Below, one piece after another: positions 39,541 through 61,237 of a stretch of DNA of 64,000 bases. The position numbers and the translations under genes are program-made. Each line of letters opens with the position of its first letter. Within the stretch, counting starts at the first letter, position 1. This DNA is from Bdellovibrionales bacterium (GTDB taxonomy: Bacteria; Bdellovibrionota; Bdellovibrionia; Bdellovibrionales; JAGQZY01): NCBI GenBank assembly GCA_964230645.1, contig CAXRHT010000001.1, positions 1 to 64,000 of the forward strand. Direction: 5' to 3'. The notes under the pieces are model-generated. The model made no database searches. It was not told the DNA's origin and worked only from the letters and a program-made list of their open reading frames with translations.

Positions 39541-39739
39541 ATCCCTTAATAAGCTTTTTTTATTTTAGATTATGACCTCTCTTTCTCCTCCTTTTTAAAC
39601 CATAAAAAACATTCAATTAAAAATTACAAAGGTTGACTGCCTCCACAGTCTTATCCATTGTAGGGCCCTTGAGCTTAAACTTATATGAGACTCTTACCCT
39701 TTTTCCTGTTGATGGTTGGATAAGCTTGGAGTGATTTTT

Positions 39740-40378
39740 ATGACAGATACCTATTCTTTCTCAGTGGCAGTATTCATGTCTTTTTTTGCTGTTATGAACC
39801 CTCTAGCCAACACCACAATGTTTTTAACCTTAACAGCTGATAAAAATAGCTTATCTCGGCGAAAAATTGCCCTCAACTCCGTTGTTGTGGCTTTTGTCAT
39901 TACCAGCCTTTTTTGTATTGCTGGGAACAGTATTTTTATGGTTTTTGGAATCACCTTACCGGCCTTCAAGATGACCGGTGGAATTCTAATTACGTTGATT
40001 GGTTTTGAGTCCCTAAGAGGGCAGCAATCAAAGATCCAGACCCCAAGCCTTAGAGCTCATGAAGAGAGTGCACAAAGTGACCTCAATGTGGCGGTAAGCC
40101 CTTTAGGGATCCCACTGCTGGCTGGCCCAGGAACGATTACTACGGCAGTGAACTATGTGAGTGATGGTAATATGTTGAACATCTTTATTACCATCACCTG
40201 TTTTTTCATTCTTTGCTTGATCACCTATGTGTGCTTTCTATTTAGTAAAGAGATCACTCGCTATCTGGGGCAAACCGGGGTAAATGTCACTATTCGACTT
40301 ATGGGGCTGATCCTCGCAGTGGTTGGTGTGGAAATGATTGTTACCGGCCTTAAAGGGGCTTTCCCATTCATGAACTAA
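39740..40378 (+). CDS. MarC-family membrane protein
   Basis: FAVMNP, FGITLPAF, PLGIPLLAGPGTI, RLMGLIL. Confidence 0.93.
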   Translation: MTDTYSFSVAVFMSFFAVMNPLANTTMFLTLTADKNSLSRRKIALNSVVVAFVITSLFCIAGNSIFMVFGITLPAFKMTGGILITLIGFESLRGQQSKIQTPSLRAHEESAQSDLNVAVSPLGIPLLAGPGTITTAVNYVSDGNMLNIFITITCFFILCLITYVCFLFSKEITRYLGQTGVNVTIRLMGLILAVVGVEMIVTGLKGAFPFMN

Positions 40379-40562: not shown

Positions 40563-40874
40563 ATGGGTGCACAAAACAATATGAATCTACTCAATCAGAG
40601 CGGATCGAGTATTCTTCCAGAAGTCTTAAAGGGAAGAAACGAGGACCTGGTCACCATTACCCAATTTGTTGAAAAATCTCAGTACGATGAAATCCCAAAG
40701 ATTGTTCGCAGCTGGCATGATCTATCTTTACCGGGCGACTTCTCGGAACTTTACACTCTGGGAGAAACCCTGGCTGATTTTGCTATGATCAGAAATCCGC
40801 AAAAATGTTACGCCATTTTAGAAAAAATCAGTGCCTTTTTGCTTGAGAAACAAAGCTCCTATCACTTCGAATAA
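40563..40874 (+). CDS. Degenerate Hpt-like protein
   Basis: Gapless resemblance to Hpt domain of the kinase at 42799-45285; canonical His replaced by Arg. Confidence 0.6.
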   Translation: MGAQNNMNLLNQSGSSILPEVLKGRNEDLVTITQFVEKSQYDEIPKIVRSWHDLSLPGDFSELYTLGETLADFAMIRNPQKCYAILEKISAFLLEKQSSYHFE

Positions 40875-40965
40875 AAATGAAGAAGACTTGTCACCCTTTG
40901 TTTTGAAACAAGCTGAGGGGCATCGTTTTGCTCAAATACAAAAGGGTAACAAGTCTTCTCGAAAG

Positions 40966-41319
40966 TCATAAAGCGGTTTTAAGAATAGGTTCTCTAAACA
41001 ACTCCTTTCGCTTTGGGTTTATCTGTTTTAACTTCTTCTCCTCAAGTACGCGCTCAAGGGTTGATCTTTTTAAAAACTCTAATCCCATGGGAACATTCTG
41101 TGTTTCGATGGTCGAAAGCAACTCTCCATCGGCTGATGTCACTTTCAAATCCACATTATAGGCCCGAGGGTTATATTCGTCTTTGCGAACAGCAAAATGA
41201 ATTTTTTCAAGCTCTGGGGCCGTCTGCTCAATCTCATGAGCGTACTGCTTCATCAATGCCCCGACTTTACCGACGGGAAACAGAAAATTGATTCCACTAT
41301 AGGTGTATTCTTTTTTCAT
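40966..41319 (-). CDS. Divergent HPF/RaiA-like protein
   Basis: Beta-alpha-beta-beta-beta-alpha pattern: EIEQTAP...IHFAV...YNVDLKVTS..GELLST...LERVL. Confidence 0.45.
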   Translation of the reverse strand: MKKEYTYSGINFLFPVGKVGALMKQYAHEIEQTAPELEKIHFAVRKDEYNPRAYNVDLKVTSADGELLSTIETQNVPMGLEFLKRSTLERVLEEKKLKQINPKRKELFREPILKTAL

Positions 41320-41332
41320 AAGACCCCACTTT

Positions 41333-41683
41333 CTACATTGCGTAGTCAAGACGTGAGAGTTCAAACTCAATATCGTCAACCTGATTACGCGGAAGTGTGT
41401 CAGTGTCCATAAAGTCGTCAACACATTTAAACGTTAAAGTGGAAAGAGTTATGGTTCGGCCTTGTTTGTCTTTTAACCAACCGGAAACTTGCACTTTGGT
41501 GTCCACTAAATTCCACATTTTAAAAGTCTTATCGTTACCGAGCAGATGGTATTCATTGCCATCTTCACCGATCAAAAGAAAATCGATATTTTCCTCGCGG
41601 TGAGATTGTGGTGCCGGCACCAATATCCCGCAGGCTTTTTTGAGCTTGTATCTAAAAGCATGTCCTATTAATTGTTTCATCAT
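41333..41683 (-). CDS. Hypothetical protein, possible OB-fold
   Basis: LIGEDGNEYHL...LVDTKVQVSG pattern; RBS GGGAGG. Confidence 0.55.
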   Translation of the reverse strand: MMKQLIGHAFRYKLKKACGILVPAPQSHREENIDFLLIGEDGNEYHLLGNDKTFKMWNLVDTKVQVSGWLKDKQGRTITLSTLTFKCVDDFMDTDTLPRNQVDDIEFELSRLDYAM

Positions 41684-41699
41684 TCCTCCCTTGAATGTT

Positions 41700-42017
41700 T
41701 TATATAGCCATATGCATGAACCGAGTCTGCTTCCAAGACTCAAACTGCCAGCTCATGTCACGTTTGATTTTTTTAATCAGGCCGTAGAAATCGCGATCAA
41801 AACAAGTAGACTTGAATTTTCTCTGAGAAGATTTGACAGAAAGAATTCCACAAAAAACGTCGTTACGGTACTGTAATTCAAGTTTAAAGGACGAGCGACT
41901 TGGGGCAATATCTAGTAACGGGCGCAGTGTGGCTCTGACAAATCTTTCTTCGAATTCATAGCCTTTGAAATCTCGAAATTCGATCTGTAACCATGTTTTT
42001 TCGGATAGCTGACTCAT
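41700..42017 (-). CDS. Divergent HPF/RaiA-like protein
   Basis: LQIEFRDF...FVRATL..L...FCGILSVKS...FKS...DFYGLI.KI...M..Q...WK. Confidence 0.6.
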   Translation of the reverse strand: MSQLSEKTWLQIEFRDFKGYEFEERFVRATLRPLLDIAPSRSSFKLELQYRNDVFCGILSVKSSQRKFKSTCFDRDFYGLIKKIKRDMSWQFESWKQTRFMHMAI

Positions 42018-42482
42018 TTAGAACCTCCTCTTGGTATCAAGTTCAAAAACCCATTGGCTCAGGTTGATGATATCTTGAGGAAAAAAAGGCTTTCTCATCA
42101 AGATAGGATCACGCTCGAGTTGGGCAATACTATTAAGGTGTTCTCCATTGAAATAAGCAGACATCAGAACGATGGGAATGTTTTTTGGTAGGTACTGGCA
42201 GTAGTCTAATATATCAAGCCCCGACGTTTTATCTTCTAAATAAATATCTAAAAATATGCCGTCCAGTTGAGCCAACTGCGTGAGATCCTTTTCCCATAGC
42301 TCATGAATGGCTTCCCTACCGTTTTTGAACTTCATAATATTGACGTTATCGAGAGTTGCTAACAATGAAGTCGCAATTAAATTTTGAATAGCATCGTCAT
42401 CCTCTACGATAGCCACATTAATGGGATCGGCAAAACTTCTAATAGTATGTTGATAATGGTTTTGCGTGGCTTGCTGAATCAT
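42018..42482 (-). CDS. Single-domain response regulator
   Basis: IVEDD, FLDIYL, MSA, KPF. Confidence 0.9.
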   Translation of the reverse strand: MIQQATQNHYQHTIRSFADPINVAIVEDDDAIQNLIATSLLATLDNVNIMKFKNGREAIHELWEKDLTQLAQLDGIFLDIYLEDKTSGLDILDYCQYLPKNIPIVLMSAYFNGEHLNSIAQLERDPILMRKPFFPQDIINLSQWVFELDTKRRF

Positions 42483-42507
42483 GTCCACTCCTTTCACGCC
42501 TTTAAGG

Positions 42508-42523
42508 AGCAACGCCTGTGCCA
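42508..42523 (-). promoter_or_regulatory. Sigma54 promoter
   Basis: TGGCAC-AGGCG-TTGCT on minus strand, 26 bp before ATG 42482. Confidence 0.85.
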
Positions 42524-42664
42524 AGAATTTCTTAGCTGTAATCATCCTATATTTCTTCTGAGTGTGATGCGAACAGACTTGGGGTATTATGCCTCAAGTA
42601 TTTGCCCCAAGAATCTTGAAAAAAGACAGTTTTTCCAGGGCTTTTGAATAGTAATAGGGCTAAA

Positions 42665-42758
42665 GATCCTTCGTTGCGCTCAGGATGACGATGGGTGTGA
42701 GACATGTCGTCTTGAGCGAAGCGAAAGACCTTGGATCCTTCGCTGCGCTCAGGATGAC
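42665..42758. repeat. REP-like palindromic cluster (3 units)
   Basis: GATCCTTCGYTGCGCTCAGGATGAC at 42665 and 42734, inverted variant at 42706. Confidence 0.9.
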
Positions 42759-42798
42759 GATGGGCAATTAAGAAAAGTCCCATAATGTCCCATAGGTA

Positions 42799-45285
42799 TT
42801 AGAGATTGTAATCTCTTTTGGCTTTATGAATTTTCTCATCGATCACACTGATCAATTTATTACACTCATCCGGGTCAGCTTGCTCAGCCGCTAGCTCTAA
42901 TTGTTGACTGAGATCACCAATTTCTGCGAATCCGTAACTTTTGGCACTCCCCTTCACTCTGTGACCAATTTTTTTAATTGTCTGATAGTCTTTTTCAGAA
43001 ATGGCTTTTTTGACAATATCAAGGTCCTCTTCTCGAGTCGCAAAATATTTTGGAAGCAGTTTAATAATTAAAGGGTCTTGTGGGCTATTTTCCTGCGGGA
43101 GCTCTTCTTTTTCTTTAATTTCCAAATTAAAGACCTCTTTCATAGTGGTATAAATTTTATCTCGATTGATCGGTTTTGTTATCCGTCCGGTGAATCCCGC
43201 TTCCAAACATTTCTTCTCTTCAACCAGTCCGGCATGAGCTGTTACTGCAAAGATTGGGAGATTTTTATAGTTCTTCCGGATCTGTGTGATAGCCGTGTAG
43301 CCATCCATAACCGGCATCTGAATATCCATAAATATAATGTCGTATTTTTTCTTTTTGACCTGTTCGCAGGCTTCAAGGCCATTGTTGGCAAAGTCGATAT
43401 TGCTTGTCATCGGGCTCAAAATTTCTTTAAGAAGAAACAAATTGTCATTGGAATCATCCACGGCGAGAACAGCGATATTCTTGTCTTTCATTTGAGCCTG
43501 CATACCATCAAGTAAAGCCCCATCTTCTGAAGAAAAATCCCAATTCTGCTGATACCTAGCATAATCTTGCAAGTGCCAACTTCTAAAAGGTTTCACCAAA
43601 AAGTTTTTAAAGCCATTCTTGCGGATAAGCTCCATATTTTCTTTAGAGAAATTCGATCTCATCAATGCGAAAATATTCTCAGGCCGACACTGAGCTTGCA
43701 CCAAACCAAAAGAGTTAATCATGCTCACAATACCTATGGAGTCATCTAATAAGATAAGTGGCTCTTTTTCACATTTATTAAGATGGTTTTCGAGCTCATA
43801 AATGTTTGAAACCAAACTGACATCGGAACTTAAACTTTTTAGGTAATCAAGCACAGGTCCATTGTCGTTGAGACCAGACACGTAAATGATGCTAGACTTT
43901 TCCAGGGGATAAAGAGACTGCTGCTTCTCATCGTTCAATTTAAACTTAAGGTCAAACGAGAATTCAGCCCCTTTGTCTTTCTCACTTTTCACTTCGATAT
44001 GTGAGCCCATGAGTTCCACAATCTCTTTACATATAGAGAGACCAAGACCGGAGCCACCGAAGCGTCGTTTAATAGATGAGTCCTCCTGCACGAAGCTTAA
44101 GAAAATATCCTTCGTTTTCTTTTCAGAAATCCCAATTCCTGTATCCTTGACACTAAATCGCAATTGAATTTGCTCGGTGGTTGAAGCCTCTTCGTCCACT
44201 TGTACACTCAGAGCTATATAGCCTTTGGCAGTAAATTTAAGTGCGTTATTGAGGAAATTTAAAAGAACCTGCTCTAATCGAATGCCGTCACCAACCATTT
44301 TTGTGGGAATACGGGGATCCATATCGACAAAAATCTCAAGTCCCTTATCGTGGGCTTGAATCGAAATGACGTCTGTCACCTGATCAACGAGCTTATAAAG
44401 ATTAAAAGGACCACTTTTAATCTTTATGGTGCGAGATTCTAAGCCGGAAAAGTCCACCAAATTGTTAAGCATATCGAGCAGCACATGGCTCGATCTTTGT
44501 AAATTATTGACGTATTGGGTTTGTTCCGCGCTCAATTTAGTGGATTTTAAAATATCAGCCATACCGATGATGGAATTCATCGGGTTTCGAATCTCATGAC
44601 TAATGCGACTTATAAAATCAGAGCGTATACTCAAGGCTTCATTAAGCTTCTGCACAGCTGGTTTAAAACCGAGAAAACCTTGAATGACTAAGACAAATAG
44701 AAGAAGCACTAAAAAGGAGATATCCAGATATATCAAGGACTGGGTTGTTGATTTAATTCTTTCGTCAAAAACCACGGACACTTCATCGAGAAACTTTTGA
44801 TAGTCTTTGATCTTTTCAAGAGCCCCTTCCATTGCAAGAGGAGTCATGGGCCCTTGATCAAAGAGTTGATTACTACCGAAAGGACTCTCAAGGTGTTTCC
44901 AGCAACTCGCCGTTTTACAAAAATCTTTGCCGAGTGTTTTAAAAGCCTTGCTGTGGTTTTCGTTCAAAGAGGACTGCAGTTTATAGATACGAGAGGAAAT
45001 ATTTTCTAGCTTTTCCGGCTCCGTGGTAATCTGAGCATCGACAACTTTAGAGTAGAGCCTCTCAACTAGAGCCACTTGTCGCTCTATCGTTCGAATGGTC
45101 TCAACAGTACCGAGCTGTTCTGAGTGAATGGCAAATTTGAAACTCTGAAACACCAAGGCCATCACGGCGACCGAAGAGAGAGCAAAAATATAAACCGCTG
45201 TAAGATTCTTTTGATGATTTCCAATTATTCGAGATTGGAAAATCATATAATACCAGCGAATACGGCTAAAAATTTTTTTTACCAT
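42799..45285 (-). CDS. Hybrid sensor histidine kinase (HisKA-HATPase-REC-Hpt)
   Basis: SHEIRNPMN, NALKFT, DTGIG, GGSGLGL, FMDIQMP, GHRVKGSA. Confidence 0.95.
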   Translation of the reverse strand: MVKKIFSRIRWYYMIFQSRIIGNHQKNLTAVYIFALSSVAVMALVFQSFKFAIHSEQLGTVETIRTIERQVALVERLYSKVVDAQITTEPEKLENISSRIYKLQSSLNENHSKAFKTLGKDFCKTASCWKHLESPFGSNQLFDQGPMTPLAMEGALEKIKDYQKFLDEVSVVFDERIKSTTQSLIYLDISFLVLLLFVLVIQGFLGFKPAVQKLNEALSIRSDFISRISHEIRNPMNSIIGMADILKSTKLSAEQTQYVNNLQRSSHVLLDMLNNLVDFSGLESRTIKIKSGPFNLYKLVDQVTDVISIQAHDKGLEIFVDMDPRIPTKMVGDGIRLEQVLLNFLNNALKFTAKGYIALSVQVDEEASTTEQIQLRFSVKDTGIGISEKKTKDIFLSFVQEDSSIKRRFGGSGLGLSICKEIVELMGSHIEVKSEKDKGAEFSFDLKFKLNDEKQQSLYPLEKSSIIYVSGLNDNGPVLDYLKSLSSDVSLVSNIYELENHLNKCEKEPLILLDDSIGIVSMINSFGLVQAQCRPENIFALMRSNFSKENMELIRKNGFKNFLVKPFRSWHLQDYARYQQNWDFSSEDGALLDGMQAQMKDKNIAVLAVDDSNDNLFLLKEILSPMTSNIDFANNGLEACEQVKKKKYDIIFMDIQMPVMDGYTAITQIRKNYKNLPIFAVTAHAGLVEEKKCLEAGFTGRITKPINRDKIYTTMKEVFNLEIKEKEELPQENSPQDPLIIKLLPKYFATREEDLDIVKKAISEKDYQTIKKIGHRVKGSAKSYGFAEIGDLSQQLELAAEQADPDECNKLISVIDEKIHKAKRDYNL

Positions 45286-46637
45286 TGGTAGGTCACCCCC
45301 CCAACGAATTTATAATCGTAGAATTTGAAAGGACCCTTATCGATTTCTAATAAATCATAGTAAAGCAGCCCTGCGAATCGACCTTGTTTAAGATCGTAAA
45401 CGCTGACATCCATAATTTCAACCCGTGCCCTCTGAACTCTTAGAACTTGGTCAAAGGCTAAAGGCGTATAGCTAAGAGCCGATCGGACAGAGAGTGCATC
45501 TCCCCATTTCAACCAGGGCTTTGAGGCCAGACGAAGGTTCCATCCCAAAATGGGTCCATTATCAAACGGAAGTCCAGGGGCATGATGAGGATCGATCACT
45601 CTCACCCCCGTACCGAGAGCCAAAATATCCCAGTGCCAAAGATAATTGATGGTGCCATCTAAATAGGAGCGGTCATTGCTTCGAATACCTAAATAACTAA
45701 ATGGAAAACTCAACTGCCCTGCTATTGATTGACGAGAACCAGTAAAAATTTCGCTACTTAGAAAGGCTTCTAAGCCAATTTTTGAGCCCATCAGTCCCGC
45801 CCTTAGGTGAGGATCTGAGGATACTAATTGAGAGTCAGCATCACTTTGAGGGAACAGAGTTTCAGGCTCCTCTTCTGCTGTCACTTGAATTATTGGAGAT
45901 CCACCTTCCGAAGGAGACTGAAAAACCAGTGAAAATATTTCGTTTTTTTTCTCGCCTTGGCCCTTTACAGAAAGATTAGCCACAAGCCTTTTGGGTTTTG
46001 ATTTTCTAGTATCTTCTTTATAATCGAGAAAGACGTGATTGGCCCCTGGTTGCGACGATAAGATTTCTCCCCCCAAAGCTTCGATGGATTCGAGAGTTCC
46101 GGAAAAACCAATCAGGACCTTAACTTTATCCTCTTCTTTTCTACAATCCATTGAAAGTAAGTACGGATTACTATTTAAAAGATCGAGATTAAGACCAAGG
46201 CTTTGACATCTCTGGGTCACAGCCAGATGGGACTTAAATTCGCGATCCTCAATACGCAGTCCCACAGAGGCATTGTCTTTTGTCGCAATCGTCTTTTTAA
46301 GGGGAATTATTTCAATGGGTTTTTGATGCTCGACCACTAAGACCTTTTTAATATTCTTGTTCGTTACGAAAGGAGAGTTGTTACTCTTATTATTCTCAAC
46401 AATGGAAATATTTTGGCCGGAATCGGTCAATTCTAATAGAGGAGGTAGGGCAATCCAGGTTTGTTTTTTTAATGATTTAAAAGAACCGTACTGTTTCCAA
46501 ATGTAGGTCTGATAGGTTTTCCACTCCGTCTTTCTCTCAAGCCCCGCAGAATCGAAATAATATAGATGGGGTTTACCTAGTGCCACATGACTCCAGGTAA
46601 ACAAAAGTACTATTAATAAAAGATTCTGTAATTTCAT
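45279..46637 (-). CDS. Exported hypothetical protein with probable C-terminal beta-barrel
   Basis: Signal peptide, ends GGVTYQW; overlaps kinase start. Confidence 0.6.
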   Translation of the reverse strand: MKLQNLLLIVLLFTWSHVALGKPHLYYFDSAGLERKTEWKTYQTYIWKQYGSFKSLKKQTWIALPPLLELTDSGQNISIVENNKSNNSPFVTNKNIKKVLVVEHQKPIEIIPLKKTIATKDNASVGLRIEDREFKSHLAVTQRCQSLGLNLDLLNSNPYLLSMDCRKEEDKVKVLIGFSGTLESIEALGGEILSSQPGANHVFLDYKEDTRKSKPKRLVANLSVKGQGEKKNEIFSLVFQSPSEGGSPIIQVTAEEEPETLFPQSDADSQLVSSDPHLRAGLMGSKIGLEAFLSSEIFTGSRQSIAGQLSFPFSYLGIRSNDRSYLDGTINYLWHWDILALGTGVRVIDPHHAPGLPFDNGPILGWNLRLASKPWLKWGDALSVRSALSYTPLAFDQVLRVQRARVEIMDVSVYDLKQGRFAGLLYYDLLEIDKGPFKFYDYKFVGGVTYQW

Positions 46638-46674
46638 CTACTTAACTCCACCACGATTCCGATCATACACCTTT

Positions 46675-48084
46675 TTAATTCAAATCGTAGTCCTTTTCTT
46701 TTCGATAAAGAGTCTTCCTATTAATGCCCAGTATCTCAGCAGCCTCTTCTTTTTTACCACTGGTTTTTTCAAGGACAAAGCGGATGTATTGCTTCTCAAG
46801 TTCTTTTAACGACAGAAGCTCCTTGAAAAGGAGACTCGTCTGCTCGTCCACCTCAAGGCTACCTTCAATCGTTATATCTTTTTCCCCAATTACATTTTCG
46901 TTACTCAAAACCACGGCGCGCTCAATTGTGTTTTCTAATTCACGCACATTCCCCGCCCACCTCAGACGCTTAAGCTTTGCCATCGCGTCGCGAGAAAATC
47001 CTGAAAGGTTTTTGTCGTTTAGAGCTGAATACTTTTTAACAAAATAGTCGGCCAATAAAGGAATATCTTCTCTACGATCTCGCAGAGAAGGTACCTGAAC
47101 AGGAATCACACAAAGCCTAAAATAAAGATCCTCTCGAAATTCTTTTTTCTTAACAGCTAGTTTTAAATCTCTGTGGGTGGCTGCAAGAATTCTTACATCA
47201 ATTTTTTTAAGTTGTGATTCTCCTAATGGTTTTACTTTTCGTTCTTGGATGACTCTTAAAACCTTTGCCTGCAAGGCCATAGGCATATCCCCTATTTCAT
47301 CAAGAAAGAGAGTTCCCCCTTGGGCCTCTTCAAAAAGCCCCTTGCGGTTTTCATTAGCCCCCGTAAAGGCTCCTTTTTTATATCCAAAAAGTTCGGCCTC
47401 TAACAGGTCTTGGGGGATGGCTGAGCAGTTTATAGGGATAAAGGGGTTTTCACACCGGTCGCTATTTTCATGAATGGATCTTGCCACCATCTCTTTACCA
47501 CTACCACTCTCCCCTGTGATCAGAACATTGGAATGGCTTTGGGAGATTTTACTGATCAATACCTTTAGCTCTCGCATTTTTGCCCCGGAGCCGAGAAGAC
47601 GAGTCTCCTCTGAGTCCACTCCCAGCTTTTTCCTGAGGCGTTCGTAATTTTTTTCCAAATTCCTAATTTTGATCGCTCTTTGTGATAGAACTTCAAGTTC
47701 AGTGAAGTTAAGGGGCTTGGTAATATAATCGTAAGCGCCTCTTTTTAAAGCTGTGGCGGCGTCATCCATCGTCCCAAAGGCCGTGATTAAAATAACAGGA
47801 GTATCCACCTCAGAAACCTTTATCTCTTCGATAAAGTCGAGCCCATTTTTCTCCGGCAAATTAAAATCACAGATTATTAGGTCAAAATCTCTATTCTCAT
47901 AAAGAACTTTTTCGATTCCCATTTCTGCCGTTTCGCAAGTTTCCGTTTGAAAGCCTATGGACTTAAAAAACTCGTCGAGCAAATCCAAAAGAGCCCTATC
48001 ATCATCAATGATTAAAACTCGGAATTGATTCTTGCTACCCGTCTTGTGGGTGACTGATTTTTTTGACAGACTCTCTAGTTCCAT
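46675..48084 (-). CDS. Sigma54-dependent response regulator (NtrC family)
   Basis: REC, GESGSGKE, GAFTGA, WAGNVREL, Fis HTH. Confidence 0.96.
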   Translation of the reverse strand: MELESLSKKSVTHKTGSKNQFRVLIIDDDRALLDLLDEFFKSIGFQTETCETAEMGIEKVLYENRDFDLIICDFNLPEKNGLDFIEEIKVSEVDTPVILITAFGTMDDAATALKRGAYDYITKPLNFTELEVLSQRAIKIRNLEKNYERLRKKLGVDSEETRLLGSGAKMRELKVLISKISQSHSNVLITGESGSGKEMVARSIHENSDRCENPFIPINCSAIPQDLLEAELFGYKKGAFTGANENRKGLFEEAQGGTLFLDEIGDMPMALQAKVLRVIQERKVKPLGESQLKKIDVRILAATHRDLKLAVKKKEFREDLYFRLCVIPVQVPSLRDRREDIPLLADYFVKKYSALNDKNLSGFSRDAMAKLKRLRWAGNVRELENTIERAVVLSNENVIGEKDITIEGSLEVDEQTSLLFKELLSLKELEKQYIRFVLEKTSGKKEEAAEILGINRKTLYRKEKDYDLN

Positions 48085-48346
48085 TGAGAATTACCTCCCA
48101 TTTTTATCCTAACAGGTTGGTGCAATTTTGCCATGAAATATGTCATTTTGCCTCGTATAAAAATGGGGCATTTTGCACCAAGGACTGTAATTTACTGTAA
48201 TAACTATTCTTTGATCCGTATTTTTTAGCCTATTTCTCATCCCAATATCCCGAGATTTTTTTGGGGCAAGGGACTCAAAGTTCGTGGCAAATTGCCCCGT
48301 GCCCGACATTAAGCCCGCCTCAAACCTCTTTATTTTTGCTCTCAGC

Positions 48347-48362
48347 TGGCACCGCCCTTGCT
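48347..48362 (+). promoter_or_regulatory. Sigma54 promoter
   Basis: TGGCAC-CGCCC-TTGCT, 30 bp before ATG 48393. Confidence 0.85.
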
Positions 48363-48392
48363 TTTGTAAGTGGGTATGCAAAGGAGTTAAAA

Positions 48393-48857
48393 ATGGATAC
48401 CGCTTTAGCAAACGACCTCAGAAATTTTGAACCTACAAAGACTCGGTTCAAACCTTTGTCCCTGAACGCTCTTAATCGTGTATTAATTATTGAAGATGAT
48501 GTTTCCCTAACCAATTTACTAACCACTGTGTTGGAAGAAATCTCACCCAATATACAGATTGATTGGGCGACCAGCGGAGAAGAGGCAGAATCTTATCTAA
48601 AAAGAGAGGGCGAAATATTTGGCACCCATCCCTATGATCTCGTGGTGGCCGATATCTTCCTTGAAGGAGAAATCACGGGCCTTGATATTTGGAAGCTGTG
48701 TGACCGCAAATATCCTAACACCAACATACTTGTGACATCGAGTTTACCGGTGGAACGATTTGTTTCTTGTTTAAAAAATGAATACTCTTGCCCCCATTAC
48801 CTACCCAAACCCTTTACCCTTAGTGAATGCAAGGAAACGATCAGTGAATTTTTATGA
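48393..48857 (+). CDS. Single-domain response regulator
   Basis: IIEDD, VADIFL, TS, KPF; RBS AAGGAG. Confidence 0.9.
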   Translation: MDTALANDLRNFEPTKTRFKPLSLNALNRVLIIEDDVSLTNLLTTVLEEISPNIQIDWATSGEEAESYLKREGEIFGTHPYDLVVADIFLEGEITGLDIWKLCDRKYPNTNILVTSSLPVERFVSCLKNEYSCPHYLPKPFTLSECKETISEFL

Positions 48858-48971
48858 TCAACACCACCCCATCTTGCCGGCACTAAGGTCCTCATGGCCT
48901 TCCCTGCTCTCCTCCCTCAGGGGGAGCAGGGGCCTCCCTCTTAACTTAGACTTAAAAAAAGGAGTTTAAAA

Positions 48972-49373
48972 ATGTTAGCTCACAATTTTGAAAAATCGAA
49001 TCTCGGGATCTTTGGGTTCGACACCTTAAACATATTCACTAATGATGAAATCTACTGCTCCGGTTTTTCACCGGCGGAGGAAGACATTGATCGCATTGGG
49101 TCCACAATCCGTAAGTTAAAACGCTATTTTTTTACGGAACAGCCCATTCACTTATACATCAATAAGAAAAACAGTCTCTTTTGGATCGATGTTAAGGTTC
49201 ACAGTCTTGACGAAGCTCTTTTCTCTGACAGTCAGGGGAAAACTTTATCGCAAGCCCTTTCACTTGCAGAGAAAAAATTGATTCAAAACTCGCCTTGCGT
49301 GATCGATCTTGAACCTCACTTAAGCACCCAAGACCACTATCAACCAAGTCACCTGCACAATATTCAAATATGA
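48972..49373 (+). CDS. Divergent HPF/RaiA-like protein
   Basis: IRKLKRYF...IHLYI......IDVKVHS..EALFSDS....LSQAL.LAEKKL.Q. Confidence 0.65.
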   Translation: MLAHNFEKSNLGIFGFDTLNIFTNDEIYCSGFSPAEEDIDRIGSTIRKLKRYFFTEQPIHLYINKKNSLFWIDVKVHSLDEALFSDSQGKTLSQALSLAEKKLIQNSPCVIDLEPHLSTQDHYQPSHLHNIQI

Positions 49374-49402
49374 AAAAACACCCTGGCTCTAAGCCAGGGT
49401 GT
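49373..49402 (-). terminator. Intrinsic terminator between convergent genes
   Basis: ACACCCTGGCT/AGCCAGGGTGT stem, T tract on minus strand. Confidence 0.8.
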
Positions 49403-49418
49403 CACATAAATACTGTAA

Positions 49419-52373: not shown

Positions 52374-52475
52374 TGTCGTCTTGAGCGCAGCGAAAGACCT
52401 AAGATCCTTCGCTACGCTCAGGATGACAATTGGTGACGCTCAGAACGACAATTGGTGACGCTCTGGATGACAATG
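52374..52475. repeat. REP-like hairpin plus three 22-bp tandem units
   Basis: GTCGTCTTGAGCGCAGCGAAAGACC / GATCCTTCGCTACGCTCAGGATGAC; ACGCTCAGGATGACAATTGGTG variants. Confidence 0.9.
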
Positions 52476-61221: not shown

Positions 61222-61237
61222 TGGCATTGTCCTTGCT
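61222..61237 (+). promoter_or_regulatory. Sigma54 promoter
   Basis: TGGCAT-TGTCC-TTGCT upstream of ATG 61274. Confidence 0.75.

Follow-up and report, generated by a model that had tools for sequence, protein, structure and literature searches.

The window analyzed here is a 64,000-nucleotide stretch of contig CAXRHT010000001.1 (assembly GCA_964230645.1) from a Bdellovibrionales bacterium whose 3.78-Mb genome is designated G000. It carries a signalling cassette in which genes for an NtrC-type sigma54 activator, an exported protein, and a membrane hybrid histidine kinase are flanked by two outward-facing operons, each opening with a stand-alone receiver gene and continuing with genes for small proteins, three of which (X1, X2, and X3) are the main subject of this report (Table 1). 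An earlier reading of the sequence alone (the sequence-only reading) had described this layout of activator, exported protein, hybrid kinase, two receivers, and small open reading frames (ORFs) and had proposed that X1, X2, and X3 are HPF/RaiA proteins that silence ribosomes. All of these genes were found where it had placed them, Pfam confirmed the domains of the activator, the kinase, and the two receivers, and the peptide pattern that it had cited for the HPF/RaiA assignment (IRKLKRYF..IHLYI..IDVKVH..ALFSD..LSQAL.LAEKKL) was located in X3. The stop codon of the left receiver abuts the start of X1.

A search with the exported protein across 61 genomes, including 12 other genomes of the genus, recovered it in four, all of the same genus and always inside this cassette. 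The cassette is patchily distributed, being present in 3 of the 12 other genus genomes (G004, G008, and G002). In these three, synteny with the window extends to both promoter boxes and to the gene order X2, small protein, X1, receiver, kinase, exported protein, activator, receiver, X3, with one additional gene ahead of X3 in two of them.

Table 1. Features of the cassette, by position in the window
Feature	Position	Strand	Basis or remark
Hpt-like ORF	40563..40874	+	aligns to kinase Hpt, hidden Markov model E 5.5e-4 among 9828 ORFs; no Pfam match
19-bp inverted repeat between convergent genes, likely terminator	40881..40959
X2, HPF/RaiA-fold protein (predicted), 117 aa	40966..41319	-	AF2 + Foldseek
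Small conserved protein, no assigned family, 116 aa	41333..41683	-	54-77% identity in three other cassettes
X1, HPF/RaiA-fold protein (predicted), 105 aa, WK..RF family	41700..42017	-	AF2 + Foldseek + VIA
Stand-alone receiver (left)	42018..42482	-	PF00072 E 2.7e-10
sigma54 -24/-12 box, left	42508..42523	-	TGGCAC-N5-TTGCT; kept in 4/4 cassette genomes
Palindromic upstream site, likely activator binding site	42581..42595		72 bp before left box
Membrane hybrid histidine kinase	42799..45285	-	Pfam HisKA, HATPase, REC, Hpt
Exported protein, no assigned family, 452 aa	45279..46637	-	no Pfam/NCBIfam match
NtrC-type sigma54 activator	46675..48084	-	Pfam REC, Sigma54_activat, HTH_8
Second, distal palindrome copy, divergent intergenic region	48165..48179		rank 5 genome-wide
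Palindromic upstream site, likely activator binding site	48284..48298		63 bp before right box
sigma54 -24/-12 box, right	48347..48362	+	TGGCAC-N5-TTGCT; kept in 4/4 cassette genomes
Stand-alone receiver (right)	48393..48857	+	PF00072 E 3.6e-11
X3, likely HPF/RaiA-fold protein, 133 aa	48972..49373	+	profiles only
12-pair hairpin closing right operon, likely terminator	49377..49403

Both sigma54 boxes that the sequence-only reading had predicted are present, and they are two of the nine strict TGGCAC-N5-TTGCT sites in the genome. Upstream of them we found a shared palindrome, GnGGCA-N3-TRCCCC, that the sequence-only reading had not mentioned; it lies 61 to 72 bp upstream of the box at all eight promoters of the four genomes, the right-hand copy at the same position in each. 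When a matrix was derived from the other three cassette genomes, with G000 left out, the right site ranked first, the left site second, and the distal copy fifth in the 3.78 Mb. Since the palindrome recurs at eight of eight promoters, the cassette likely controls a two-promoter sigma54 regulon of its own, and the earlier suggestion of a dedicated signalling cassette gains support, at the level of sequence, from the two sites that top the genome-wide ranking. A wider regulon was sought in G000 and none was found: among 82 relaxed sites, scanned with a matrix that included the G000 sites, only the two cassette boxes carry an upstream palindrome. Scans of the DNA for sigma70 promoters and terminators returned chance-level results. 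A further sigma54-like box, without the palindrome, stands before a 414-aa lipoprotein-like ORF (61222-61237, plus strand). Between the kinase gene and the left upstream site lie two 31-bp copies of a REP-like element (42665-42764) that recurs at 52403, 57868, and 57947; it has 58 copies genome-wide at no more than three mismatches and none at this place in the three other cassette genomes.

In the kinase, two predicted membrane segments flank a sensor region, and the HisKA, HATPase, REC, and Hpt domains are present with their phospho-acceptor residues. The sensor region matched no Pfam family, either here or in the N termini of 11 relatives, and a suspected NarX/PilJ-like sensor was not supported by that scan. 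The activator combines a REC domain, an AAA+ domain with Walker motifs and GAFTGA, and a Fis-type helix-turn-helix (HTH), and it does not reach the cut-off of any named NCBIfam model; G000 encodes one rpoN and 12 sigma54 activators. Both stand-alone receivers retain intact phosphorylation residues (invariant E-D-D, D, S, and K). The exported protein ends in an aromatic residue, presumably the mark of an outer-membrane barrel. Convergent with the left operon is an Hpt-like ORF, likewise absent from the earlier description, that was seen in G000 and G004 and not in the G008 and G002 loci. In both copies Arg stands in place of the phospho-acceptor His, and the proportions of nonsynonymous (pN) and synonymous (pS) differences between them are 0.30 and 0.79. 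A gene for a MarC-family membrane protein (39716-40378, plus strand) adjoins this ORF in both genomes; MarC has been listed among the stress-operon neighbors of Balon (10.1101/2022.11.24.517861).

The assignment of X1, X2, and X3 to HPF/RaiA held for X1 and X2 when AlphaFold (AF2) models were compared with HPF/RaiA structures; for X3 it is carried by profiles only. The X1 model (pLDDT 87.9) matched at a best Foldseek E value of 1.7e-5, and the X2 model (pLDDT 82.7), whose top matches were all HPF/RaiA, at 3.7e-5; for both, the matches listed at E ≤1e-3 were HPF/RaiA-family chains without exception. A VIA search with X1 returned 16 HPF-family chains at Z 11 to 14, the next fold following at Z 8.1. 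X1 and X2 are accordingly predicted to share the HPF/RaiA fold. X3, which has an N-terminal extension and a second helix shortened by a proline, likely has this fold as well, reaching an hhalign probability of 96% against the family of X1 (here called WK..RF after its C-terminal motif) and 70.5% against canonical HPF. None of the three passes the curated HPF/RaiA cut-offs of Pfam or NCBIfam: X1 has no PF02482 or NCBIfam match, X2 reaches E 0.093 against TIGR00741 (13.2 bits, cut-off 40.9), and X3 reaches E 0.03 against PF02482 (15.5 bits, cut-off 23.7). Searches of the PDB with four-sequence profiles of X1, X2, and X3 yielded nothing relevant; a 32-sequence X1 profile reached RaiA/HPF there at E 1.7e-5. 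Atlas feature searches, which serve as leads only, gave 0.91 to an unnamed Bdellovibrionota cluster and less than 0.9 to PF02482 clusters. All three are single-domain proteins of 105 to 133 aa, without the C-terminal second domain of long HPF and RafH. A recent local triplication was considered and rejected, as the three fall into separate long-branched groups in the tree; a single X1-X2-X3 clade was weakly rejected (p-AU 0.044 on 29 rows), in a test that the long branches make fragile.

The face by which HPF binds ribosomal RNA (rRNA) is largely absent from these proteins. As a reference we took 25 Pfam-passing HPFs of the phylum (24 encoded behind rpoN plus G000's own), a set picked from the 30 best matches and therefore biased to the consensus, and scored the ten columns that are at least 80% Lys/Arg in that same set, on which they are thus defined. 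The canonical HPFs keep a mean of 9.5 of these ten columns, X1 keeps two, X2 one, and X3 two, close to the 1.0 to 2.0 that composition alone would give; register shifts of as many as four positions raised the counts to at most three, and an independent profile alignment gave the same counts. The register of X1 was confirmed structurally, residues 8 to 102 falling on 1 to 95 of E. coli HPF, whose numbering is used for HPF positions throughout. Orthologs of X2 keep three to five of the columns and those of X3 two, none, and none. X3 of G000 retains the equivalents of K26, R29, and K80, the helix-1 basic residues being lost in two of its three orthologs. Acidic residues are conserved at some of the vacated sites, in 38 of 54 WK..RF family members at position 29, in 28 of 54 at position 80, and in X2 and its relatives at positions 26 and 87 (6 of 6). 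In Staphylococcus aureus HPF, the substitutions K27A/R30A/K84A/R87A together abolish ribosome binding and the loss of one patch alone does not (PMC4889938); at the presumed equivalents of these sites (23, 26, 80, and 83), X1 and X2 keep none of four and X3 keeps two. Because the conserved basic face is down to background level, classical ribosome silencing by X1, X2, and X3, as the sequence-only reading had it, is doubtful, and the repurposed fold that it had named as an alternative is now the better-supported branch.

X1 belongs to a widespread family with residues of its own, in which Pro39, Phe68, Trp95, and Arg99 are invariant or nearly so. Family members were detected in 79 of 401 genomes of the phylum with a four-row profile (E ≤0.01, the weakest rows being partial matches) and in 56 of 201 with a 54-row profile (E ≤1e-6, the last rows including canonical HPFs). 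Weak PF02482 matches occur in 7 of 32 members (best E 5e-4), and the members are unnamed or annotated as "hypothetical," as is P0032 of Bdellovibrio sp. 22V ("hypothetical protein"). G000 itself holds four WK..RF members beyond X1 and, by a broad profile, nine HPF-fold genes, four of which were in the training set. The earlier statement that HPF/RaiA proteins usually occur in one or two copies was therefore an understatement, all the more as nearly a third of bacterial species have multiple hpf copies (Chan 2025, 10.1101/2025.11.04.686544). No hpf was detected behind rpoN in six of six genomes of the genus (L081, on C3, in G000; L164 to L168 in the others). The Pfam-passing HPF gene of G000 (C2:817153-817440) faces a CBS-domain gene, and its orthologs lie beside CBS and USP-like genes.

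The genomic neighbors of this family point toward stress. Comparing 1.5-kb flanks of the 27 best family loci outside the cassette with those of 31 canonical loci, we found Hsp20 adjacent in three and none, respectively, using a profile built from such neighbors and confirmed with Pfam; G000 has two Hsp20 genes, one of which lies next to a family member. Among 20 larger loci, 16 of them chosen after the near flanks had been seen (249 called ORFs, 113 of them scanned with Pfam, 119 proteins scanned in all), Hsp20 lies within about 4 kb in six, and other loci carry Dps, Fnr-like, CBS, or peroxidase genes. One locus, L082 (2127-8691), combines Hsp20, a phosphoribosyltransferase, an erythromycin esterase, a WK..RF protein, PFK, and a weak baeRF3 match, a set reminiscent of the hypoxia and dormancy genes of the DosR regulon. 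In four loci a WK..RF gene stands in tandem with a different HPF-fold gene (L045:1059-1740, L083:5805-6433, L089:5895-6957, and L091:6280-6991); as with X1 and X2, such pairs make a heterodimer possible. The protein encoded in the window between X1 and X2 (41333-41683) had no convincing Pfam or PDB match and only a marginal one to L145 (E 0.043); its likeness to the gene between the two HPF-fold genes of L089 was dropped at an hhalign score of 0.7%.

The activator-receiver module extends well beyond the genus. Members of the receiver subfamily were detected in 83 of 401 phylum genomes, a sigma54 activator is present in 14 of the 20 receiver loci examined, and sixteen module or cassette activators (L137 left out) group with that of the window and have the recognition helix in common. 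Six distant loci have palindrome-like sites ahead of their boxes, and others have weak ones or none, as judged without a shuffle control. The boxes at L134 (G218), L135 (G034), and L146 (G320) are followed by CsbD, DUF883, hemerythrin, Hpt, and receiver genes, BON and YflT-like genes are found close by, and these loci represent a candidate sigma54 general-stress regulon. Seven of the 20 loci have an HPF-fold gene next to the receiver; five of them were preselected on that feature, and two (L135 and L150) were not. In genomes that carry both genes and were not used for queries, a family gene lies less than 2 kb from the receiver subfamily in 3 of 22, with 0.05 expected, a comparison in which related genomes are not independent. 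At L096, from another order, the set of kinase, activator, box, receiver, and two family genes is repeated, and in two genomes of different families a WK..RF domain is fused to a C-terminal receiver (P0061, L143:6030-6824; P0062, L145:6224-7000). Behind the receiver of one distant cassette, a 109-aa ORF (L133:8056-8382) looks HPF-like by eye and has no profile match.

We tentatively favor, at a little less than an even chance, the explanation that the cassette switches on its two sigma54 operons under stress and that the HPF-fold proteins act as partners of the receivers and not as silencers of ribosomes. Following established two-component and sigma54 biology, an outside signal would set the kinase, and phosphate would pass from HisKA through REC and Hpt to the activator, which would bind the palindrome and open both promoters. 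The newly made stand-alone receivers may then be phosphorylated through the same relay and provide feedback or output, an arm in which the His-less Hpt could also take part. The HPF-fold proteins would contact the receivers through their new conserved surface, proposed in X1 to comprise Pro39, Ser63, Phe68, Trp95, Lys96, Arg99, and Phe100, and so shape the response. A role in the life cycle or in predation, which the sequence-only reading had raised, was left unsupported by the patchy occurrence of the cassette (3 of 12) and by the presence of the X1 family in only 1 of 11 genomes of genus g35.

Several observations weigh against this preferred explanation. Every solved structure that matches the X1 fold at Z ≥11 is a ribosome factor, the WK..RF family has a positive net charge (mean +3.1), and its Lys..Arg-Phe end is kept. 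The test by basic columns also has its limits in this genus: G000's own Pfam-passing HPF keeps seven of the ten basic columns and one of the four S. aureus-equivalent sites, and Pfam HPF matches in five other genus genomes keep two to six of ten. The receiver subfamily lies within 1.5 kb in only 2 of the 27 family loci (none of the 31 canonical loci), the family gene of L082 lies in one locus with a gene resembling Balon (baeRF3 E 1.4e-4, below the cut-off), the stress genes lie in the modules of relatives and not in this cassette, and support for the activator clade is only 87/72. A looser sigma54 motif occurs genome-wide at 20 sites with the right spacer and at 6 to 21 with wrong spacers; since it is no commoner than these controls, motif counts alone prove nothing, and support for the boxes comes from their position and their conservation in the four cassette genomes. 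Even the receiver fusions fit a ribosomal role, because some known ribosome-binding factors have HPF fused to other domains for stress or sensing (PMC13728122; Chan 2025).

The chief competitor, which we consider unlikely on balance, is that the cassette responds to stress by switching on atypical hibernation factors, which would bind the small subunit mainly via the C-terminal WK..RF end and may be gated by the receivers. The receiver fusions and stress neighbors fit this model and the receiver-partner model almost equally. Beyond the fold match itself, Lys89 is retained in 52 of 54 family members, with an Arg three positions further along, the family's neighbors include Hsp20, Dps, the Balon-like gene, and DUF883, and Balon/baeRF genes occur in stress operons with RaiA and Hsp20 (10.1101/2022.11.24.517861; PMC6514570). 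In RafH, a Trp that follows helix 2 stacks against 16S rRNA (PMC10799931), and the lack of a detectable hpf behind rpoN in the genus would fit compensation by extra copies (Chan 2025). However, both helix patches are lost and replaced in part by conserved acidic residues, X3 is without the C-terminal end altogether, and RafH retains its basic patches (PMC10799931). It is because of this conserved acidic face, which tips the balance, that we prefer receiver partners to atypical ribosome binding.

Use of the fold on another target, either a structured RNA, the fold being dsRBD-like, or an enzyme, is improbable. The dsRBDs and T7 gp1.2, which targets dGTPase, are the next structural neighbors (Z 6 to 8), and basic residues do occur at other helix positions, but these matches fall far short of those to HPF and lie in the range that common arrangements produce, and no conserved RNA or enzyme neighbor was seen in the loci read. 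Slightly less probable still is the literal form of the sequence-only reading, in which X1, X2, and X3 would be ordinary HPF/RaiA paralogs blocking the A and P sites. The full-length fold match and the K26, R29, and K80 equivalents of X3 in G000 speak for such paralogs, as does a gene of G131 that occupies the same cassette position and passes the PF02482 cut-off at 24.7 bits; yet that gene keeps only four of ten basic sites, the helix-1 residues of X3 are not maintained in two of three orthologs, and X1, X2, and X3 themselves stay below the curated cut-offs with one or two basic sites each. It is very improbable that the ORFs are relics of HPF in decay that persist as passengers in the operons, for despite long branches and the fast divergence of X2 between G000 and G004 (pN 0.35), all three proteins are under purifying selection (pN 0.06 to 0.35, pS 0.65 to 0.98, with pN much lower than pS for every pair), X1 is 89% identical where silent sites are saturated, and its family has invariant residues.

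HPF/RaiA (YfiA; PF02482 Ribosomal_S30AE, TIGR00741) provides the predicted fold of X1 and X2, from which the window's proteins differ in their scores, in the loss of the basic face, and in new conserved AP-S and WK..RF motifs; in the phylum, canonical hpf is located behind rpoN, whereas X1, X2, and X3 lie in predicted sigma54 operons of their own together with receivers. RafH (Rv0079 of the DosR regulon, Mycobacterium tuberculosis and M. smegmatis) is likewise an HPF paralog that has diverged and is controlled by a two-component system of its own, and relatives of X1 occur in a similar context with Hsp20, erythromycin-esterase-like, phosphoribosyltransferase, PFK, and Balon-like genes; RafH, however, keeps a C-terminal domain along with its basic patches (PMC10799931), whereas the proteins described here are single-domain and under predicted sigma54 control. 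Fusions of hpf to Csp, SigE, and CBS (Chan 2025), like the archaeal AHA/Hib CBS-HPF, join HPF to a regulatory domain as L143 and L145 do, where the fused domain is instead the WK..RF variant. AtoC, ZraR, GlrR, and LuxO, with a BarA-type hybrid kinase, have the same REC-AAA+-HTH activator with GAFTGA, Hpt kinase, and palindromic upstream site, but the output here consists of receivers and small proteins, and the recognition helix and palindrome are particular to this module. PMC12316311 and PMC3162934 served as comparators only.

In the literature searched, a coverage that left out most subscription journals, we found nothing on HPF-like paralogs or on this module in Bdellovibrionota. Receiver-HPF fusions are not named in the available parts of Chan 2025, and the word Bdellovibrio is absent from its text, whose supplementary tables may list some of these genes.

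We further offer, as a possibility with well under an even chance, that these loci represent an undescribed sigma54 stress circuit of the Bdellovibrionota in which receivers, free or fused, bind and switch WK..RF HPF domains that serve either as adaptors or as phosphorylation-gated ribosome binders. The sigma54 module outlined here, with its predicted binding site, extends across the Bdellovibrionota and in some genomes stands before general-stress genes. A large subfamily that is under selection and devoid of the rRNA-binding face would represent either the first co-option of this fold into signalling or a new mode of ribosome binding, a question that is directly testable, as the proteins are small and a family member is present in a named strain, Bdellovibrio sp. 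22V. The survival of predators between prey lends the question practical interest, and if the circuit does operate in this way, it would couple a hibernation fold directly to phosphorylation.

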